Positions 3,660-19,988 of a stretch of DNA of 20,490 bases are shown in pieces. A program made the position numbers and the translations under genes. Source of the DNA: Candidatus Moanibacter sp. (GTDB lineage Bacteria > Verrucomicrobiota > Verrucomicrobiia > Opitutales > UBA2987). The notes beneath the pieces are model-generated. The model saw nothing but the letters and a program-made list of their open reading frames with translations. It was not told the origin of the DNA and did no database searches. The stretch spans positions 1-20,490 of the forward strand of contig CBDCEW010000006.1 in the NCBI GenBank assembly GCA_965215885.1. Direction: 5' to 3'. Position 1 is the first letter of the stretch; every line of letters starts with the position of its first letter.

Positions 3660-4967
3660 ATGTTATTTGGAGCAATTGTAACACTATTAATTCTCAGTGG
3701 TCTGGTGGGGTTCCAGATCCTGCTGAGGATGAAGAACATACCGCCCAGCCAACTGGCCGTCGTTCACGGCCGGCGGGGTGAAGACCGGATCGGATTCAAG
3801 ACGCTCAAAGGAGGGAGGGTTTTTGTTCTGCCGCTGATCAACGACATCAGCATCATGGATCTCACCCCTAAGACGACGACGGTGGAAGTCGATTCCGCAA
3901 TCGCCAAAGGGATCGTGCCGCTGGTGGTCAAAGCCACCGTGAGTTTTGGCATATCCACGACATCGAAAGGAATAGTCAATGCCGTCCAACGCATCCTGGT
4001 GATGTCGTGGGATAATCTTATTGCGGTGGCCAATTCCATAATCGAGGGGCACTTACGCGATTCGCTTTCCCAGATGACTCCGGAGGAAGTGATGAGTCAC
4101 AAGGAGCGTTTGGTTAAGAGCATGTTGCAGGTGTGTCGGGGAGATTTGGAGGCTATCGGCTTGGAGATTACCACCATGAACATTGCCGATGTGGAGGATC
4201 ACCGATTTGACGGTGTCGAGGAGCCCGATCTCTATATTGCTCTGCTGAAGCGAGTACAGACGGCGAACGCCGAAACCCAATCGCGCACGGCGCAGGCCGA
4301 AGCGCTGGCGGCAGCTACAGAGGAGCAGGAAGCCAGGCGCACTGAAGTACAGGTGCGTGCGGCCGAAAACGAAATTGAGGAGCTCCAGGCGAGCACGGAT
4401 TTCAAGGCGGCGCAGGAGGAGCAACGATCCGCCGTCGGGGTGGAGGAAAACCAACGCCATGGGGAGGCTGAAGTGGCTGGTATTTTGCGGCAGATCGAAG
4501 CTGAAAAGCAGGGTATCGCCATGCTGGAGGCGAAATTCCGGGCGGAAATTGTGACTCCTGCCAAGGCGCAGAGAGAGCGCAAGATTCTGGTTGCGGAGGC
4601 CGAGGCAGCTTCCATTCGAGGATTGGGTGAAGCTGAACTGAAACAACTGGAAAACACCATTAATATCCTTAAAGGAGGTGGCGAAAATGGCATTAAGGCC
4701 TACGTTATTGAGAAATTTGATGAGATGATCTCGTCATTCGCCGCTACCATGGATCTATTTTCGACGGATCACGTAAGCGTGGTATCAGGTAACAGCAACA
4801 GCGGTCCGATAAGCGCGGTGCATCCAGGTGCGTTCGATCTCGAGCGCAATCGCTTGATCGGCGAGAGCCTGGGCGGGGCGCTAGAGGGGACCGGGTTTGG
4901 AGCGACTACGAGCACGGACGCCGGGAGTTCGGAAGCGCCGACTATAGCGAGGCCGCAACCAAAATGA
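3660..4967 (+). CDS. Flotillin-like SPFH/band 7 protein 2
   Basis: GGGAGG RBS; TM helix, GGRVFVLPLI, IEGHLR..MTPEEV, DLEAIGLEI..MNIADVED, AEA-rich coiled coil, IVTPAKA..AEAEA. Confidence 0.92.
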   Translation: MLFGAIVTLLILSGLVGFQILLRMKNIPPSQLAVVHGRRGEDRIGFKTLKGGRVFVLPLINDISIMDLTPKTTTVEVDSAIAKGIVPLVVKATVSFGISTTSKGIVNAVQRILVMSWDNLIAVANSIIEGHLRDSLSQMTPEEVMSHKERLVKSMLQVCRGDLEAIGLEITTMNIADVEDHRFDGVEEPDLYIALLKRVQTANAETQSRTAQAEALAAATEEQEARRTEVQVRAAENEIEELQASTDFKAAQEEQRSAVGVEENQRHGEAEVAGILRQIEAEKQGIAMLEAKFRAEIVTPAKAQRERKILVAEAEAASIRGLGEAELKQLENTINILKGGGENGIKAYVIEKFDEMISSFAATMDLFSTDHVSVVSGNSNSGPISAVHPGAFDLERNRLIGESLGGALEGTGFGATTSTDAGSSEAPTIARPQPK

Positions 4968-5036
4968 GGGAAAGAGACGAACCGCAGATGAATCCCGGCA
5001 AGCCGGGACGAATGAAGAGGAATTGACCACGGATTG

Positions 5037-5175
5037 GAGCCGTCTACTCCCGTTGAGCGGGATGCGCCGAGCCAGGGAAAACCGCGGATTGATTCAACGT
5101 GCAATTTCGGCTTGCCAAGAACAGGAAATATCTTTCGACGTGAAGTCGATCGGGATCAGCGTGACCGCGGATTAC
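5037..5175 (+). repeat. ~140-bp direct repeat, copy 1 (copy 2 at 7039-7177)
   Basis: GAGCCG.CTACTCCCG..GGGATGCGCCGAGCCAGGGAAAACCGCGGATTGATTCAACGTGCAATT...GATCAGCGTGACCGCGGATTAC, nearly identical in both places. Confidence 0.95.
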
Positions 5176-5391
5176 CTAGCGCAGCGTAGCCGCAACCAAT
5201 AAAGAAGAAGAGAACCGGTCTGCCGTACGGCAGACCACGCAAATGGACGCGAATGTAGAAGGAAACTCCTACTTCCCTTGGGTAACCTCGTCGCGAACCT
5301 TGTCCCAAACCTTGTCGACTGCAGTTTATTGAATACCAACCTTTTCTACGCAAAAACTTGCTAGAAAAACAAGGTTCTTCCGGATTGTAAT
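5176..5391 (+). mobile_element. Non-autonomous element family A (216 bp, no terminal inverted repeats)
   Basis: Present here and absent from the paralogous site GGATTAC|ACGGAT at 7171-7183. Ends are CTAGCGCAGCGTAGCCGCAACC and CGGATTGTAAT(AC). Confidence 0.75.
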
Positions 5392-5426
5392 ACGGATGGC
5401 GCTGCCCGCCATGAGCCCGTCGAATG

Positions 5427-5715
5427 GGATAGAGAGAGGTCATAGATACTTCAGTCTCAGGATGGTGAACAGGGAGTCGAACCCGCTGAGCAGGACCAAC
5501 TCGCTTATGCGAGTAGGGAAACGCAAAGAAGAGCATTCCCAAGAGTGCAACCGCAGTACGCGCCTATTAATAGCGCTTTTGGGAATGCTCTTCTTTGCGT
5601 TTCCGGCTCTGCCCTACAGCAGTGAGGTCCTGCTCAGCGGAATCGACTCCTACCTTGGCCCATAGTATTGGCTTTTTCCTGCTTGACCAATAGGCGTAGT
5701 CGAAGGGCTTTCCTT
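5427..5715. repeat. Long nested-hairpin element, copy 1 (candidate structured ncRNA or ssDNA element)
   Basis: Outer IR 5473-5497 / 5626-5650, small hairpin ACTCGC-TTAT-GCGAGT, perfect 26-bp inner IR 5517-5542 / 5579-5604; duplicated at 7189-7476. Confidence 0.85.
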
Positions 5716-5836
5716 ATTGAAATTTTGATCTCTGATCCATTTAGATTTTTCTGGTAGGACTTTCTTTTCGATGGAACAGAAGTATATTTTTTGAAAATTA
5801 AGGAGTAAATATTGCTAGATTAATGGAGAAGAGCCA

Positions 5837-5899
5837 ATGAAAGCAGTAAAAGTAACGTACACAGTGAAACCGGAATACGTGGATCAAAACAAAGCCAAT
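5837..5899 (+). pseudogene. 5' fragment (21 codons) of a paralog of the 7878-8183 gene
   Basis: Same GGAGAA RBS and MKAVKVTYTVKPEYVDQNKAN; similarity ends abruptly at 5899. Confidence 0.9.
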
Positions 5900-5920
5900 C
5901 CCGCCCCATCCCTTTGGGAC

Positions 5921-6030
5921 CGGGCGATTTTGGCGCTGGGCAGCGTTGGTCGAGTCGCCCAAGGCCGACAGGCCTGGCACGACTCGACCGCCTCCCCCGA
6001 CCGCCTCCCCCAGCATCCAAAATCGCCTCG
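5921..6030. repeat. ~110-bp palindromic element
   Basis: GGCGATTTTGG (5923) / CCAAAATCGCC (6017), GCTGGG/CCCAGC, GGTCGAGTCG/CGACTCGACC, AGGCC-GACA-GGCCT. Confidence 0.75.
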
Positions 6031-6062
6031 GCATACATCATCGTAATTACGAACTCGAGTAC

Positions 6063-6635
6063 TTAGTGTCGGCGGGGGAACAAAAACCCGAAGCCGCTGC
6101 CGCATAGTCCGCCGATGATATGGGCGAACTGGGAAATGTTGTCTTCTCGAAAGGCGTTGCCGATCTCATTACCAAGGTAGAGGATCAGAACGAGAATAAA
6201 AGTCAGCGGAACCACACCGCTTCGGACGTTTGTAATCGAACCGAGAAGAATCAGCATGAAGACGATCCCGCTGGCTCCCAGAATGCCGGCAGAAAAGAGG
6301 ATGGCGTTGAGCAAACCAGTGACAAAAGCGGTGATGAGACTCATTACCAGAAGCGGGACACTTCCGTATTTCTCTTCGAGAACAGGACCGATGAGGAGAA
6401 TGATGGAAAGGTTCGTAAACAGGTGTCGCCCGTCGGCGTGACCCGCTACATGGAGGAAGAGCCGGAGAAGTGAAACCGGCTGTATCAGCGAGAGCTCCGG
6501 ACTGGCCGAAAACAGGTGGGCCGTCAGCCACCCACTCGTGGCAAGATCGAAGCCGTAGATCAGGCAGCAGATGAGGGTAAAGGTGAGCACAAACGGGGCA
6601 TTGTATTCGACGCGCATCCTTTGGGTAATGGGCAT
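6063..6635 (-). CDS. Rhomboid family intramembrane serine protease
   Basis: Multi-TM protein with H..GHA..RHLFTN, GPVLEEKYG, catalytic GASG and AHIIG. ATG at 6635 chosen; TTG at 6638 is possible. Confidence 0.93.
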   Translation of the reverse strand: MPITQRMRVEYNAPFVLTFTLICCLIYGFDLATSGWLTAHLFSASPELSLIQPVSLLRLFLHVAGHADGRHLFTNLSIILLIGPVLEEKYGSVPLLVMSLITAFVTGLLNAILFSAGILGASGIVFMLILLGSITNVRSGVVPLTFILVLILYLGNEIGNAFREDNISQFAHIIGGLCGSGFGFLFPRRH

Positions 6636-6769
6636 CAAACGGCGATAAATTTCCTGGTGTGGACTTCTTCTCGTATTCGACTTGAGAAGGACCTCGGGCT
6701 AAGGACCGAATTCTGGAAGGCGAGTTTGTCACACTGAGGCAGGCGCGACAATCCAAAATCGCGGATTTC

Positions 6770-7177
6770 CTAGCGCAGCGAGGCCGCAACCAAAATGAGG
6801 GAAAGAGACGAACCACAGATGAACGCAAATGGACCCGTCTCCGTCCTCCGGGCTTCGCCGTGGCATGCGCGAATGAAGAGGAATTGACCACGGATTACAC
6901 GGATGGGCACGGATGGGAAAGAGTGAAAGTGGAAAGTGAGAGTGACAGGTAGTCCCGGCGGGCCGGGAAATGAAGGGCAACGAATAAAGAGGAAGGCACC
7001 ACGGATTCGACGGGCTCATCCCGGCAAGCCGGGAATTCGAGCCGCCTACTCCCGCTCAGCGGGATGCGCCGAGCCAGGGAAAACCGCGGATTGATTCAAC
7101 GTGCAATTCCGGCTTGCCAAGAACAGGAAATATCTTTCGACCTGAAGTCGATCGGGATCAGCGTGACCGCGGATTAC
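6770..7177 (+). repeat. Repeat mosaic: family A left end, CCACGGAT/CACGGATG arrays, micro-palindromes and copy 2 of the 140-bp repeat
   Basis: CTAGCGCAGCGAGGCCGCAACCAAAATGAGGGAAAGAGACGAACC, shared with 4947-4984 from GCGAGGCC onward; 7039-7177 matches 5037-5175. Confidence 0.85.
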
Positions 7178-7188
7178 ACGGATGGCGC

Positions 7189-7476
7189 GGATAGAGAGAG
7201 GTCATAGATACTGCAGTGGCAGGAAGAAGAACAGGGAGTCGAACCCGCTGAGCAGGACCAACTCGCTTATGCGAGTAGAGAAACGCAAAGAAGAGCATTC
7301 CCAAAAGCGCTATTCGTGGGACAGTAGTGCGGTCGCGCTCTTGGGAATGCTCTTCTTTGCGTTTCCGGCTCTGCCCTACAGCAGTGAGGTCCTGCTCAGC
7401 GGAATCAACTCCTACCTTGGCCCATGGTATTGGCTTTTTCCTGCCTGACCAATAAGCGTAGTCGAAGGGTTTTCCT
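7189..7476. repeat. Long nested-hairpin element, copy 2
   Basis: Outer IR 7235-7259 / 7388-7412, 25-bp inner IR 7280-7304 / 7341-7365, extra basal stem GGCAGGAAGAAG / CTTTTTCCTGCC. Confidence 0.85.
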
Positions 7477-7877
7477 ACCTTTCTCTGGGTTGCCACGCCC
7501 AGCTTCGCTGGTCTCGCAATGACAGAGTAGTAGAGTACATTGTAGGTTGATTGACAGCTCGATTCTTATAATTCCGGCAATCGAGGTTGATCATTCCCAG
7601 TCCCGGCTTTCTGGGACAAGGTTTCGAAAAATCATCTCGTAGGTCGACAGCCGGTCCTGTAAGGTAAAGAGCCGTAGATTCCAAGTAGTCCCGGCGAGCC
7701 GGGACGGGGAGTAGCCAAGTTACTCACATTGGGGCCTCGCCGAGCTTGCCAAGAACTCGACTCGGCCCAATTGATGAATAACTTGAAATACTTATAAGAC
7801 TTTTTAAGGCTGTCGTTCAATAATAGCATCATTCATCAACTGACAGATACCAGAGAATAGTAAGTGGAGAAAAGCCA

Positions 7878-8183
7878 ATGAAAGCTGTAAAAGTAACGTA
7901 CACGGTGAAACCGGAATATGTGGATCAGAACAAAGCCAATATCCGAAAGGTCATGGAGGCCATTAGAACCAACCCGATTCCCGGGATGCGATATCCCTCG
8001 TTTACCCTGGATGATGGTCAAACATTTGTTCATATCAACATGGCAAAAGACGAGGATACGATGTCCAAGCTCGGAGAATTGAAAGAATTTGAGGAATTCA
8101 GGATGGCGCTCGTAGCCAGTGAGCCTGTCTCACCTCCCAAATCCGAGAATCTGAATCTGGTGGCGGCGGGATTTGATCTCTGA
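7878..8183 (+). CDS. Small hypothetical protein, probable ABM-like dimeric alpha+beta barrel
   Basis: GGAGAA RBS; V.YTVKPE.V..N..I..V..A, G.RY.SF.LDDG.TFVHI, L.EF.EF pattern. Confidence 0.75.
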   Translation: MKAVKVTYTVKPEYVDQNKANIRKVMEAIRTNPIPGMRYPSFTLDDGQTFVHINMAKDEDTMSKLGELKEFEEFRMALVASEPVSPPKSENLNLVAAGFDL

Positions 8184-8194
8184 TTCCAGTCAGC

Positions 8195-8320
8195 GAAGAT
8201 CGACGAGGAGAGCACGATTGAGAGGCACGATCCGTCTTCGTTTCGTTTCCCTCACTACGCCGTGACGAGTGGGGGGAGTTTGAGACTGAGTCGATCTTTC
8301 GTCGTGAATCATAATCCATT
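8195..8320 (+). repeat. AAGATCGACnnGAGAtcACGATTGAGAgtCACGAT repeat module with a 39-nt insert
   Basis: About 11 same-strand copies near 8196, 8541, 10700, 10830, 10935, 11349, 12454, 13325, 16120, 16264 and 16364. Confidence 0.9.
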
Positions 8321-8327
8321 CGACTAG

Positions 8328-8500
8328 CCCGAACATTTCACAAACCTTCTACTACGACCGCGGATCTCACTGCGTATCAAACCTTCCCTTGCACGGCGAC
8401 CTCAGAGGGTTCCAACACGCTGTCGCCCGCCGCCCTGCTGAAAGGCATTGATACGCACCAATCTACGCAGTCTCGCTACGAAGTGTGTGAAATGTCCGGG
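8328..8500. mobile_element. MITE family B, 173 bp, CTAG target-site duplication
   Basis: TIR CCCGAACATTTCACA / TGTGAAATGTCCGGG; CTAG at 8324-8327 and 8501-8504; empty paralogous site TTCGACTAGCTCATGGCAGG at 13408-13427. Confidence 0.9.
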
Positions 8501-8764
8501 CTAGCTCATGGCAGGCCGTGAGCTAAAATCGGAAGAAGAGAAGATCGACTGGAGATGACGATTGAGAGGCACGATGAGGGGAGAGATTTAGCAACGAATG
8601 AATGAAGGGCAACGAATCGGAGACGCGGAGAATGGGAGAGACGCGGAGATGCGGGGGCAAGAGAAAGGGAGAGAGGGTGAAGGGGAGGAGGAGTCAACAG
8701 TAAACAGTGAACAGTCTTAGCGTAGTCGTGCTCGTTCTCGAAATCGTTCTCGAAAGTCGGTCTA

Positions 8765-8892
8765 CTGAACTATAGGTTCAAGCAAGATAATTGGTGAAAA
8801 GCTACCCTTCGGAGAATTCAGCCAAGGAGTCTGCTGCGGACACTGTTGTCGAGGACGAGCACGAGGACGATTACGATAGGGAGTCACGATGA
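8765..8892 (+). pseudogene. Degenerate internally deleted four-helix-bundle gene relic
   Basis: Homologous to 13099-13183; tail reads LVKSYPSENSAKESAADTVVEDEHEDDYDRESR*; bracketed by inverted hexamer arrays at 8721-8755 and 8849-8877. Confidence 0.55.
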
Positions 8893-8913
8893 GGGCGCCG
8901 CACAAGGAGTCAG

Positions 8914-9750
8914 CTAAACGTCATTTCCTTGAGCATTAGTCGACACGAAATCCATCACTTTCCTCCACCAGGTTGCCGCGGGGCCGGCCGGCCAACTGTT
9001 GTGACCTGCTCCTTCCAATACTTTCAGGAGCTTGGGCGCTGTCAATTCGTCGTATAGCCGCATAGTGTGTTTCCGAGGTATCACTTCGTCCAGAGCGGCC
9101 AGGACAACGGCTACGGGTTTGTCAAACGACTGAAGATTTCGGACGTTGTCATAATTGTCGCGCACCAACCATCGCGCCGGGAAGTACCAATAGTGGGTCT
9201 GGGCCAACTCCGGCAGTGAATCCCAAGGGGTAAACATAATCACTCCCGCAACCGGTACCGGAGGATCGGCGGCCACCGCCGCAGCCACACCGCATCCCAG
9301 TGATTCGCCCCAAAGATAGACGGGACCGCCGAATTCCTCGTGCGCCCGCTTCACCGTTTCCCTCGCGTCCGCCACGAAAGAATGTTGTCCCAATTTACCT
9401 GTGCGCCCGCCATACCCGGGATACTCGGTGATCAATACGTTGTATCCCAACCGGACCAGAGCGTGGACGTAGTAGCTACGATTCCACGCCGCGCCCGCGT
9501 TTCCGTGAAATATCACCACCAACCCTTTTGCATCATCTGGATCGACGGCGGCAGCGAATCCTCTGTAAGAATCGTTCCGGTCCTGCCAAAATCGCAAACC
9601 TACTGCATGGACCTGGCTGTCTGAAGGCTTTTCCTTGGCGGGAAAGTAGAGCATCCGCGTTTGGAGGAAGTAGACGGCCACCACCAGCAGGCTATATCCT
9701 ATCGCAAGGGGCACGAGAAAGCGAATTACCAGTTCCATCTTCTTTTTCAC
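8914..9750 (-). CDS. Alpha/beta hydrolase (ABHD/BEM46-like) with N-terminal membrane anchor
   Basis: Q..MLYFP, FHGNAG, EYPGYG, nucleophile GESLG, DEVIP, GAGHN. Confidence 0.93.
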   Translation of the reverse strand: MKKKMELVIRFLVPLAIGYSLLVVAVYFLQTRMLYFPAKEKPSDSQVHAVGLRFWQDRNDSYRGFAAAVDPDDAKGLVVIFHGNAGAAWNRSYYVHALVRLGYNVLITEYPGYGGRTGKLGQHSFVADARETVKRAHEEFGGPVYLWGESLGCGVAAAVAADPPVPVAGVIMFTPWDSLPELAQTHYWYFPARWLVRDNYDNVRNLQSFDKPVAVVLAALDEVIPRKHTMRLYDELTAPKLLKVLEGAGHNSWPAGPAATWWRKVMDFVSTNAQGNDV

Positions 9751-16564: not shown

Positions 16565-17947
16565 ATGAAAGACAAAAAATCTTACCAACTGAATCCTTCG
16601 ATAGATCGTTTAACTCTGCGTCTGGTCCTGCCCGAAGAGCAGGAGCGATTCAATGATCTATTGAAACAACATCATTATTTACACAGTGCGGGCAGCGCAG
16701 GAGAGACCCTGCGCTATGTGGCGCAGATCGACGGGCAATGGATGGGCCTGCTCTTGTGGGGGGCCGCATCCTACCGGCTGAAGGATCGAGACGAATGGAT
16801 CGGGTGGGACGGGGCGCAACGGCATGCACGATTGAAACTGGTAGTACAGAACCGGCGTTTTCTGATTTTGCCCGGGGTGGATCTTGCAAATTTGGCCTCC
16901 AAGACGTTGGGTATGTGCCTGAGAGTCTTAGCCGATCACTGGCAGGAGGCTTTTGGCTATCGTCCCTTAGTAGCGGAAACGTTCGTGGACCCACAGATTC
17001 ACCGGGGCACTTGCTACGAAGCGAGCGGGTGGACGCCCTTGGGCTTGAGCGCGGGATATGGCCGCCAACGCGAAGATTTCTATCAACGCCATGAGCGTCC
17101 CAAGCAGATCTGGGTCAAACCCCTCAAGGCTAATGCCCTTGAGCTTTTGCGCGCTTCAGGGCCATTGCCCGCGGCACAGAGCCAGGCGCTCAATGAAACC
17201 GATAACTCCCATGCGGTCTGCCTCAAAGTGGAACAGATGAGCAGCCTGTGGGAACGCTTCAATCAGATAGAAGACTTCCGTCGTAAAGCGGGCCTTAGAT
17301 ATCGGCTCGCCACGGTCCTGAGCATGATTGTGCTCGGCACGATGTGCGGCAAACAGACCCTCAAGGGCATCGTGCGCCTGGCCCATCATCTCAATCAAGC
17401 CCAATTGCGCGCCTTACGCTCCTGGAAAAACCCCAAAACAGGCCGCTATAAGGCCCCTTGCTATGATGTCTTCTATCGGGTCTTGCAAAACGTAAAGGCC
17501 GAGCTCTTCGATAAAACCCTCACCGAATTCATCTGCTTACAAGACGGCTGTTTGCCCCGCGATATTGCCGTCGACGGCAAGACCCTCAAAGGCACAAACA
17601 CCGAAGAATCAAAGGCTCTGCACCTGGTGGCCGCAGTCGATCACCAAAGCGCTCAAACCTTAGCCCAAGTCGCTACCGCCGATAAATCCAACGAGATCAC
17701 CGCCGCCCAGACTCTCTTGCGAAAGATGCCCATTTTGGACGGCTCCACCTTCACCTTCGACGCCATGCATAATCAAAAAGAAACTGCCCACATCGTCGTC
17801 GAAGAACTCAGTGCTGACTATGTTATTCAAATTAAAGACAATCAGCCCAACATGCATCAATACGCTCAGAATCTCTTCAGCTCCACCCCCTTTTTCTCCA
17901 CCAAACCGTGGACAATGACCATGGGCGACTCGAAATACGTCAAATAG
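16565..17947 (+). CDS. ISAs1-family transposase, N-terminal ORF: DUF4338 domain + DDE_Tnp_1-associated region + start of DDE
   Basis: HHYL, LRYVA, RDEWIGW, RFLILP..NLAS, ETFVD..GTCY; then D.R..G.RY.L, IAVDGKTLKG, KSNEI, TFDAMH.QK, ADYV..IKDNQP. Confidence 0.9.
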   Translation: MKDKKSYQLNPSIDRLTLRLVLPEEQERFNDLLKQHHYLHSAGSAGETLRYVAQIDGQWMGLLLWGAASYRLKDRDEWIGWDGAQRHARLKLVVQNRRFLILPGVDLANLASKTLGMCLRVLADHWQEAFGYRPLVAETFVDPQIHRGTCYEASGWTPLGLSAGYGRQREDFYQRHERPKQIWVKPLKANALELLRASGPLPAAQSQALNETDNSHAVCLKVEQMSSLWERFNQIEDFRRKAGLRYRLATVLSMIVLGTMCGKQTLKGIVRLAHHLNQAQLRALRSWKNPKTGRYKAPCYDVFYRVLQNVKAELFDKTLTEFICLQDGCLPRDIAVDGKTLKGTNTEESKALHLVAAVDHQSAQTLAQVATADKSNEITAAQTLLRKMPILDGSTFTFDAMHNQKETAHIVVEELSADYVIQIKDNQPNMHQYAQNLFSSTPFFSTKPWTMTMGDSKYVK

Positions 17948-18065
17948 CAACCCATTCTCTAAGCGCTCCCTCTGCCGGCCTGCCCCATGCCCGCCAGTTC
18001 GCCTGTGTGCAACGCACCTTCCATTATCCAAACAAAGCTGAACCTTCCTCTGAACGCTCTTACTA
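17896..18065 (+). pseudogene. ISAs1 transposase middle part (-1 frame), cut by the nested IS
   Basis: LHQTVDNDHGRLEIRQ...SSERSY; HGR.E.R motif; follows CCCCCTTTTT. Confidence 0.85.
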
Positions 18066-19982
18066 GACCTTATCCGAAAAGCTACTGATTGGCCGCAAAG
18101 AGGCGCAAAAGGCGCAAGAAAAACTTGAGAAAAATCATTTTTTGGCTTGATAAAAAGTGTCGCAACATGCTAGTGTTTAACAACCTAAGATTAAGAAAGG
18201 AGTTAAACATGCCAACATGTGCGACAGAGGAGAACAAAAGCGATAAGACGCCCCTTAGCAACCTCATTCTGCCGGTTCCAGACACGGATTTCCGTGATTT
18301 TCTGGATGAAGTTGAAGAATTGGCCGGGTTCGCGGCGCAAATCATCGAGGCGATCGAGAAGGATCTGGACGCCCATGCGCGTGAGAAGAAGAAACTTCGA
18401 TTGGAAGATCGAAGGTTCTTTGAAGGGCGCACAGCGGAGCTGCCGGAGCTGGACATCGAGGAGGAGAATATTCTGGCTGCTGAATTGAATCTTGGGGCAG
18501 GCCGGCCGCGGATGCCGGCTTATGCGGTATACGTGTTCGTGATGATTCGAGGGTTTCTGGGTTCGTTGACCACGAAACCGGCACGGCGGTTTGTGCGCGA
18601 GTCGATGAGCTTGTACGGATTTTTGCAGAGCGGGGGACTGAGAATGCCGGCGGTGACGACGATTCTGGAGAACGTGAACCTGGTCAGCCATACGACCCGC
18701 GAGTTGATCTTTGATAAACAGATTGGGTTTATCCTCCAGGAGCAATGGGACGATTTCGGGAAGCTGACGATCGACAGCACCTCGGTGAAAGCAAACAGCT
18801 GCTGGCCCACCGATGGGAAGATTCTGAGCGGTCTTTTGATGCGGGCCAATCGTTTGGGTCAGAAGTTGCATGTCTTCGGGCTGGAGGATTTTCGCAAGGG
18901 ATGGGTTGGGCGTTGGCTGGAGGAAATGGACAAGCTGGAGTTTCAGATTTGTCTGGCCGCGGGCAAACCGAAGTCGAAGGGCAAGCTGAAGAAACACTAC
19001 CGGCGGTTGCTCAAGCGGGGCCGCAAGGCGGCCGACTCACTAACGGGGGAACTGAGCCATCTTGAAGAGGGCCTGTCGATGGATTCACTGCCTCCCACTC
19101 GCCGGGAGCTTCTGGAGCGGGCATTGAGCCAGATCAGGGGCGATATTGCCGACGCCAAGCGGGTTGTTGAGTATGCTCATGATCGGGTGTTTCACGAAAA
19201 GAAGCTACCGTCCACACAGAAGGTCCTGAGCCTCTCGGACGGATCGGCGGCCTACATCAAGAAGGGCAGCCGCAATCCAGTGATCGGGTACAAGCCACAA
19301 CTGGTTCGCAGCGAAAACGGTTTTGTCACCAGCCTGATCGTACCGCAAGGCAACGCGGCAGACTCCATTGAGCTGGCGCCGGCCATCGGCGATTCGATCA
19401 AGCGCACCGGTGTCATTGCTGAACTGGTCAGCACCGATGACGGATATGCTTCGGCGAAGGGACGCAAGGAGGTGCTGAGCATGGGGGTAAAGCAGATCAG
19501 TATCAGTGGGGCGAAGGGCAAGAAGTTGACCACCCCCGAGGACTGGGAGAGCGAGGCGTATCGCGAGGCACGCCGCGATCGCTCCGCAGTGGAGTCGCTG
19601 ATGTTCACGATTAAAGATGGATTTGCCTTTGGCGAACTCGGCCGCCGCGGCATCGATGCGGTAGGCGATGAACTGCTCGAGAAGGTTCTGGCCTACAACT
19701 TCTGCCGCATCATACTGATGAAGAAACGCCGAGGGGAGGAACTGGAACAGGCAGCCTGAATCTGACCGCTTTGAAGCTCAGAGAAAAAAGCACCACGGGA
19801 TGAGTATGCCTCCAGACAGCGGCAAATATACGTATTGTGCAGCAAGCCACGCCGATGGCCGCTCAATACCTGCTCATCGGCAGCGCCGGCAGCCTAAAAC
19901 CCGAAACCTGCCAGCCATAGGCTGGTCCGCCCGTGGCGGAGAACCTTAAACCGCCCGCTCGAAAGGCTTTTCGAATGGGGTC
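18066..19982 (+). mobile_element. Nested IS (ISNCY/IS5-like DDE), 1917 bp
   Basis: IRs GACCTTATCCGAAAAGC / GCTTTTCGAATGGGGTC; direct repeat TTACTA at 18060-18065 and 19983-19988. Confidence 0.9.
18209..19759 (+). CDS. DDE transposase (ISNCY/IS5-like), 516 aa
   Basis: AAAGGAG RBS before ATG 18209; GRPRM, IDSTSVKANSCWPTD, KVLSLSD..AAYIKKG.R..IGYK, STDDGYAS, RSAVES.M..IK. Confidence 0.9.
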   Translation: MPTCATEENKSDKTPLSNLILPVPDTDFRDFLDEVEELAGFAAQIIEAIEKDLDAHAREKKKLRLEDRRFFEGRTAELPELDIEEENILAAELNLGAGRPRMPAYAVYVFVMIRGFLGSLTTKPARRFVRESMSLYGFLQSGGLRMPAVTTILENVNLVSHTTRELIFDKQIGFILQEQWDDFGKLTIDSTSVKANSCWPTDGKILSGLLMRANRLGQKLHVFGLEDFRKGWVGRWLEEMDKLEFQICLAAGKPKSKGKLKKHYRRLLKRGRKAADSLTGELSHLEEGLSMDSLPPTRRELLERALSQIRGDIADAKRVVEYAHDRVFHEKKLPSTQKVLSLSDGSAAYIKKGSRNPVIGYKPQLVRSENGFVTSLIVPQGNAADSIELAPAIGDSIKRTGVIAELVSTDDGYASAKGRKEVLSMGVKQISISGAKGKKLTTPEDWESEAYREARRDRSAVESLMFTIKDGFAFGELGRRGIDAVGDELLEKVLAYNFCRIILMKKRRGEELEQAA

Positions 19983-19988
19983 TTACTA

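Follow-up and report, generated by a model that had tools for sequence, protein, structure and literature searches.

The stretch of DNA analysed here (the window: 20,490 nucleotides (nt) of contig CBDCEW010000006.1, assembly GCA_965215885.1, Candidatus Moanibacter sp.) contains two copies of a nested palindrome of about 290 bp, referred to below as copy A and copy B, the centre of which is reversed in one copy relative to the other. Both copies are members of a dispersed intergenic repeat family and not a stand-alone device. The family, which was previously unrecorded, is a new lineage-restricted variant of the extragenic palindromic repeats, with an unusually elaborate four-way fold and inversions at two levels. 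In our view, the pair probably belongs with the lineage-specific repeats that resemble repetitive extragenic palindromic (REP) elements or miniature inverted-repeat transposable elements (MITEs), and its loops are likely to invert by template switching or recombination from one hairpin arm to the other. Read in this way, the flipped centre is, with good probability, the product of recurrent mutational inversion of a hairpin loop and points neither to a retron nor to a guide RNA or programmed switch, which removes a tempting false lead.

The two copies have the same orientation and form two direct-repeat blocks of 93% and 96% identity at an offset of 1762. Each is built from an outer stem (P1), a small hairpin (P2), a long inner stem (P3) that closes a 24-nt loop, and a second small hairpin (P4), and the perfect run within P3 is one base pair longer in copy A (26 bp) than in copy B (25 bp). 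The initial annotation had described two such copies with an outer inverted repeat, a small hairpin and an inner inverted repeat, and both the coordinates and the stems were confirmed. Folding is far more stable than that of shuffled sequences, with −146.6 kcal/mol (z = −11.5) and −134.9 kcal/mol (z = −9.7) on the two strands. The parts of the two copies are as follows.

5427..5715, + strand: copy A, within the limits of the initial annotation; the family profile matches 5396-5749
5473..5497, + strand: copy A, 5' arm of outer stem P1 as folded, paired with 5626-5650 over 25 nt (92%)
5499..5514, + strand: copy A, small hairpin P2, ACTCGC-TTAT-GCGAGT
5517..5548, + strand: copy A, 5' arm of long stem P3, paired with 5573-5604 over 32 nt (94%)
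5543..5578: copy A, centre, consisting of the 24-nt loop (5549-5572) and 6 bp of each arm, inverted relative to copy B
5607..5624, + strand: copy A, small hairpin P4 (CTCTGCC...GCAG type), its stem weakened by one T-T mismatch
5626..5650, + strand: copy A, 3' arm of outer stem P1
7189..7476, + strand: copy B; the family profile matches 7149-7484
7235..7412, + strand: copy B, core, with P1 formed by 7235-7259 and 7388-7412 (88%)
7261..7276, + strand: copy B, small hairpin P2, ACTCGC-TTAT-GCGAGT
7280-7310 with 7335-7365: copy B, long stem P3, 31 nt (97%)
7311-7334: copy B, loop, followed by P4 at about 7369-7386
7305..7340: copy B, centre, oriented as in most close relatives

The centres of the two copies (5543-5578 and 7305-7340) agree at 27/36 positions when one is read as the reverse complement and at 13/36 when they are compared directly, exactly as had been counted from the sequence, and the reverse-complement match was reached by none of 100,000 shuffles. 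For the 24-nt loop alone, the corresponding figures are 16/24 and 4/24. The flanks of the two copies are identical at 240 of 252 positions, and the loop is significantly more diverged (Fisher p = 6e-5). This holds for the family as a whole: among 39 close pairs of copies, the mean p-distance was 0.34 in the loop, 0.07 in the P3 stem and 0.21 in the remaining columns (P2 and other, largely unpaired positions that do not belong to the P1, P3 or P4 pairs). The loop is thus the fastest-changing part of the element among close copies, in line with the earlier description of a faster-diverging loop in a conserved scaffold.

The family itself was defined in the genome to which the window belongs (G000; 6.36 Mb in 105 contigs, 90.3% complete). 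A BLAST search with copy A gave 52 matches, and nhmmer, run with a profile of the better copies, gave 100 matches, which merge into 64 loci, 38 of them spanning the hairpin core. Outer arms were found in 36 of these 38 core loci and two loci were mis-parsed, leaving 34 parsed copies with 32 unique sequences; the alignment used for structure and phylogeny (A2) has 30 rows, the twins lying in duplicated regions (C27:1126, C27:3636, C100:132808 and C104:167023) having been dropped. Of the unique copies, 30/32 could be placed between flanking open reading frames (ORFs) of at least 180 amino acids (aa) and all of these are intergenic, the other two lying at contig edges. Relative to their neighbours, 11 stand in tandem on the same strand, 10 in tandem on the opposite strand, five between convergent and four between divergent genes (n = 30), so that the family shows no orientation bias to neighbouring genes.

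When folded individually, 33 copies adopt the same four-way junction. It can form on either strand and occupies a core of about 156-178 nt, of which roughly 156 nt are shared by the family, with the following helices.

P1: outer stem of about 14-25 bp, in which GGAGTCGACTTCGCC is paired with GGCGAAGTCGACTCC
P2: small hairpin, either of the type ACTCGCTTATGCGAGT or of the type GCGCG-nnn-CGCGC
P3: stem of about 31 bp, closing a loop of about 24 nt
P4: small hairpin, CTCTGCC-nnnn-GGCAGAG

Across the 30 non-redundant copies, pairing reaches 91.7% of cells, and at 30 of 48 pairs both sides have changed; none of 500 shuffles reached any of these measures, controls with slid positions were 39-44% paired, and RNAalifold concurs on P1 and P3. 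The scenario named in the initial annotation as its refutation, a one-off inversion in a dead palindrome, is wrong as well: homologues are many and covariation is strong. The family is further divided into subgroups. In the one that includes copies A and B, P1 is longer by 12 bp, giving a core of 177-178 nt, and a conserved leader and trailer are present, while in another the palindrome continues 14 bp further outward, reaching GTAGAAAGTTGGGA ... TCCCAACTTTCTAC, and flanks are conserved for more than 120 nt per side. A consensus for the loop is still recognisable across subfamilies.

The loops of all subfamilies are homologous and occur in either sense relative to P2 and P4. Since P1 and P3 are palindromic, the orientation of each copy was set by the position of the P4 hairpin, and loops were then compared in both senses. 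Among the 34 parsed copies, 19 loops are B-like and 15 A-like, two of these assignments being weakly supported, and the 30 rows used for the tree divide into 16 and 14, respectively. On a maximum-likelihood tree of these 30 scaffolds, from which the loop columns had been removed, loop orientation changes at least seven times, and at least four of the changes are forced by well-supported branches. The idea of an invertible loop in a conserved paired scaffold therefore stands in an evolutionary sense, though not as a programmed switch. Copy A is sister to copy B (SH-aLRT 98) within a clade of seven members, the other six of which are B-like, which makes the inversion in copy A a recent and derived one. 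A mismatch 6 bp into the P3 stem moves together with the loop, which places the breakpoints in the perfect part of the arms and fits the 36-nt length of the flipped segment. Inversion has also taken place at an outer level. When eight related copies are oriented by their conserved flanks, P2 and P4 are exchanged as reverse complements in two of them (C2 and C100), indicating that the whole core was inverted between the P1 arms; together, C14, C103:149795, C100 and C2 display all four combinations of core and loop orientation.

Small inversions of hairpin loops are a feature of chloroplast DNA. In hairpins of RNA genes, template switching between the arms has been described as giving rise to ‘loop inversion only’ events and to multi-base compensatory changes (PMC8794818), and template switching between inverted repeats is reported to homogenise the arms and invert the spacer (PMC8604942). 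The element resembles these cases in that a loop is inverted between perfect arms and leaves no footprint in the stem, in its multi-base compensation, and in a recurrence that produces homoplasy. It differs in scale, the reported ribosomal RNA cases being mostly loops of 4-8 nt compared with a 24-nt loop and a 36-nt segment and at least 4-7 events here, and in having an additional, outer level of inversion.

The family is a single component of a mosaic in which various dispersed repeats occupy the intergenic DNA. Copies A and B arose by a patchy local duplication of about 0.9-1.07 kb that took in the first 21 codons of a small gene, and the central 36 nt of copy A was inverted afterwards. In the model that we propose, the inversion would have come about either by intramolecular template switching or by recombination between the perfectly complementary P3 arms. 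In the former case, the polymerase would switch during replication to the complementary hairpin arm and back, so that one arm is copied from the other and the loop may be inverted. Homogenisation of the arms by the same process would account for the near-perfect stems and the many apparently ‘compensatory’ changes. Inversions have recurred at P3, where they flip the loop, and have also occurred at P1, where they flip the whole core. The element would have spread as a non-autonomous DNA element by means of some enzyme or by recombination. The orientation of the loop would have no function.

The duplication is visible in the window as a series of blocks, listed here with the small gene that they touch and the gene that lies between them.

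5009-5035, 5033-5175, 5427-5714 and 5824-5899: duplication blocks, with partners at 6870-6896, 7035-7177, 7189-7476 and 7865-7940, respectively
5033..5175, + strand: upstream block of the patchy duplication, 96% identical to its partner at 7035-7177, both being members of dispersed repeats
5837..5899, + strand: 21-codon 5' fragment of the small gene, downstream of copy A
7878..8183, + strand: intact small ORF of 101 aa, downstream of copy B, which lies 401 nt upstream of it
6063..6638, − strand: rhomboid-family gene between the two repeat-mosaic intergenic regions, given for context and not part of the element

The last duplication block carries the initial 21 codons of the small gene together with its ribosome-binding region, and the ORF downstream of copy A (5837-6046) continues past this fragment into unrelated repeat sequence. 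The remark in the initial annotation that both copies precede the same small gene is therefore true of copy B and its intact ORF, and of copy A only as regards the fragment. Given the patchy local duplication, the shared neighbourhood is a by-product and implies no functional link. The 101-aa product has no Pfam family and gives only a faint ABM-like lead.

Several observations weigh against the interpretation as loop-inverting palindromic repeats. We infer the inversion mechanism and have not observed it, and both orientations at one locus were not seen in the contigs available from public runs (Logan contigs, depth 2-4). The loop of copy A differs from that of copy B at 8/24 positions, compared with 12/252 in the flanks, and no closer donor for it was found in the assembly, the best other loops matching at 18/26 and 17/26. 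A plain recent flip is thus insufficient on its own to explain the divergence, and either faster mutation of the loop or gene conversion that homogenises only the collinear flanks is needed as well. The excess might reflect the several-fold faster evolution of loops than scaffolds throughout the family, the single-stranded state that the loop would have in an extruded hairpin, or an escape of the inverted loop from gene conversion between the direct repeats. The case for mobility rests on copy number, on subfamily structure and on one pair of filled and empty sites that involves a whole mosaic of about 720 bp. No mobilising enzyme was found among the families searched, namely reverse transcriptase (RT), RAYT-like (REP-associated tyrosine transposase) and other Y1 transposases, IS110 and TnpB, and no parent transposon among the three insertion sequences compared with the element. 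No target-site duplication was seen in the flanks of 34 copies or at the filled and empty site; the true borders of the element are uncertain because its flanks are themselves other repeats. Strong covariation would also be expected of a functional RNA, and taken alone it does not distinguish selection on such a fold from templated repair of the arms. Finally, one metatranscriptome run (X9) contains contigs of family members, for which DNA carry-over is possible, and family members may therefore be transcribed.

This last, weak hint, together with the covariation, the folding stability and the preserved loop consensus, is what would speak for a multicopy structured non-coding RNA, with the four-way junction as its functional fold and a variable loop that possibly pairs with a target. 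We consider this unlikely, since the copies show no orientation bias to genes, both strands fold about equally well, and the loop, in some copies the whole core, is found in both orientations, which would change the RNA. A scan for promoters and terminators found nothing at the element above shuffles, the whole window had no match in Rfam 15 at gathering thresholds, and relaxed matches (E <= 10) over 5350-5800 were limited to miRNA-hairpin models far below their cut-offs. Mismatches in P3 on the reference strand (22 G-U versus 46 A-C) are dominated by one inherited position that moves with the loop and give no clean strand signal. The idea of a guide-carrying RNA, raised by the initial annotation, does not hold up either: the loops are homologous among copies, and 34 of them, compared with the genome by blastn-short, gave no significant match outside family loci, the sole 26/26 match outside the listed copies being the duplicated-region twin of a family copy. 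The annotation had also likened the element to a retron, and an outer inverted repeat around small hairpins and one long hairpin does recall the msr-msd layout, from which msDNA would be reverse-transcribed. This alternative is the least credible of all. There are about 40 copies, 38 of them core loci, an extra 3' hairpin (P4) is present, no Rfam retron model matches, no RT gene is found among the window proteins, and the genome has only two RVT_1 matches, 15.3 kb and 33.8 kb from the nearest copy.

REP heads carry GTAG, and the outward extension of the palindrome in one subfamily to GTAGAAAGTTGGGA ... TCCCAACTTTCTAC would, with the 29 Y1_Tnp matches in the genome, be in keeping with a REPIN-like element, that is, a non-autonomous single-stranded DNA hairpin that a Y1/HUH transposase of the RAYT type, with its gene elsewhere in the genome, would copy. 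REPINs are likewise extragenic, hairpin-forming, lineage-restricted and present in tens to hundreds of copies, with conserved arms and a less conserved centre or spacer that still forms hairpins, and their doublets occur in two orientations (PMC3337134). A REPIN is, however, made of two inverted REPs with a spacer, and not of a nested four-way junction of 156-178 nt with distinct P2 and P4. Nine of the Y1_Tnp matches are copies of an IS200-type gene of 152 aa, and about 18 are longer and RAYT-like; none of the latter (0/18) lies within 8 kb of any family locus, and three of the nine IS200-type genes lie within 2 kb of one, two of these being the same duplicated region. Moreover, the ends of the 555-bp IS200-type element carry hairpins of a different kind. 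A REPIN-like mode of copying thus appears unlikely, if marginally less so than a functional RNA. The suggestion of a single-stranded DNA recombination site linked to a recombinase is not supported, no Y1/HUH, IS110 or TnpB gene being associated with the family in the genome: TnpB (PF07282) has no match at all, and one of ten IS110 copies is located 666 bp from a truncated family copy without abutting its break. A related scenario, in which the junction is the substrate of a structure-specific enzyme that copies single-stranded DNA or cruciforms, with the two nested inversions (of loop and of whole core) as steps or by-products, or in which a multicopy RNA changes its target through a flip-flop loop, is about as doubtful as the functional RNA. 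An enzyme-copied junction would, if real, put the family in a class of its own, as a palindrome that propagates itself and can change among four states.

A programmed inverton, in which a recombinase flips the loop and thereby alters expression of a downstream gene, would be compatible with both orientations in the family and with the position of copy B upstream of the small ORF, and is nevertheless very improbable. At 24-36 nt, the segment that flips is short and lies between hairpin arms, no recombinase gene was found in the window, the family copies have no consistent downstream gene, and no Logan contig, at a depth of only 2-4, has the alternative orientation at locus A. An assembly artefact is just as improbable. 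When palindromic stems exceed the k-mer length, the orientation of the loop becomes ambiguous in de Bruijn graphs and could be threaded the wrong way, but the perfect run of copy A (26 bp) is shorter than k = 31. A 173-nt Logan unitig from run X1 (which may derive from the same sample as the assembly) matches copy A at 5472-5644, from P1 to P1, with no differences, so that the flipped orientation is not peculiar to this assembly. In addition, the loop of copy A is not merely that of copy B reversed, and 14 of 30 family members are A-like. Loop contigs from runs X2 and X3 are B-type, with no A-type recovered, and those from X1 show the reverse; at this low depth, they are uninformative for individual loci. 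An apparent joint between opposite strands (5399/5613) was seen in one contig with a 32-nt side and was treated as cross-talk between repeats.

Returning to the palindromic-repeat interpretation, its closest counterparts among bacterial MITEs and mosaic repeats include Correia/NEMIS, ERIC and BIME. The family is likewise small, non-coding, intergenic and palindromic, with subfamilies and with composites that include other repeat modules; it has terminal inverted repeats (GGAGTCGACTTCGCC / GGCGAAGTCGACTCC), a core of 153-178 nt, below about 500 bp, with subfamily flanks conserved further, and a presence/absence difference at an orthologous site. In comparison with MITEs, no target-site duplication was found, and no ends are shared with the two most abundant insertion sequence (IS) types. 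The genome tolerates much repetitive DNA, and the anatomy of the element fits a non-coding, orientation-indifferent palindrome of the REP/REPIN/MITE/BIME kind. About 30 paralogous hairpins also make a compact natural data set for a mutational process that is usually inferred singly. Since strong covariation occurs here in an element without strand preference, repair of one arm with the other as template can look like selection for an RNA structure, which calls for caution in RNA-structure discovery.

Outside this genome, the element was found by BLAST in none of 40 relatives, and a covariance model matched one of 150 other genomes sampled from the order. The match, in genome G063, is a single copy with a B-like loop and the same leader and trailer on a 23.5-kb contig (G063:C2, 23,551 bp), which aligns with G000:C12 at 92.8% over 1759 bp and 87.9% over 1029 bp. 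Here, a filled site in G063:C2 (a repeat mosaic of about 720 bp that includes the element) corresponds to an empty site of about 65 bp at G000:C12:37555-37620, which is the presence/absence difference referred to above. G063 is placed in another family of the order. Its contig, considered over the stretch 6242-9747, holds several repeats of the G000 type and matches G000:C95 at 100% over 87 nt; it may be transferred DNA or may have strayed in from an organism closely related to G000. Exact-pattern scans with two patterns returned nothing in genome contigs or metagenome contigs, a scan of viral contigs with the second pattern only was likewise empty, and blastn against plasmids and phages gave no match. 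Words of the stretch are present in 20 public runs from 11 studies.

Other candidate features of the element were considered and set aside. A tRNA-like T-arm was suspected in GGAGTCGAACCC, and ARAGORN reported no tRNA or tmRNA gene. An open frame crosses the core in 23/30 copies on the reference strand and 20/30 on the other strand, compared with 29% of shuffles; column variability has no 3-base periodicity, the copies are not independent, and ORFs on both strands are expected of a palindrome, so a coding role was rejected. Two transposases that recur near copies were examined as partners and proved to belong to abundant IS types, of which the genome has about 45 and about 130 copies; the element is neither contained in their ends nor similar to them, and no parent IS with matching ends was found among these two and the IS200-type element, the ends of all three being unlike P1.

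The genome is very rich in IS. About 130 complete or incomplete copies belong to an IS of 1.92 kb that encodes a DDE_Tnp_1 transposase of 556 aa and has a copy in the window at 18065-19983; another IS, 2.38 kb long and encoding a transposase of 741 aa with a weak match to Transposase_29, is present about 45 times. The IS200-type element of about 555 bp is present in nine near-identical copies (e.g. C2:12509-12871), has end hairpins of its own that are unlike the family, and inserts after a TTT(T/G)A-like sequence. Some family loci have unusual arrangements. At G000:C80:30924-31445, two cores stand head to tail within one pair of outer arms and meet at CAGCTGAGCGGGACC, the palindromic extension of P1, suggesting that slippage or recombination took place there, and identical copies at G000:C100:132045-132201 and 132808-132964, 763 bp apart, flank a fragment of the 556-aa transposase gene. 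Part of C104 (C104:165900-176182) has a twin in contig C27, with 96-99% identity, which may reflect duplication, strain heterogeneity or assembly redundancy; a loop difference between the two was not counted, the region having many scattered small indels.

Within the window, dispersed repeats that have about 10-97 copies elsewhere make up the whole of 4940-6060 and 6750-7800, and the most abundant repeat near copies A and B, at 8300-8450, has about 126-154 other genomic copies. Family copies are usually bordered by CACGGA / CCGTG / CTGTG-type motifs with a period of about 9-10 nt (e.g. GACCGCGGATTTCACGGATGGCACGGAT), which in the window are found at 5380-5430, 6870-6900 and 7140-7190 and are dispersed through the intergenic DNA of the genome. 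The neighbouring genes of the window encode SPFH (Band 7), rhomboid, hydrolase, ThuA and GlgB proteins and transposases, and the product of the ORF at 16565-17947 is DruA-like in its N-terminal region and also has DDE_Tnp_1_assoc and DDE_Tnp_1 domains.

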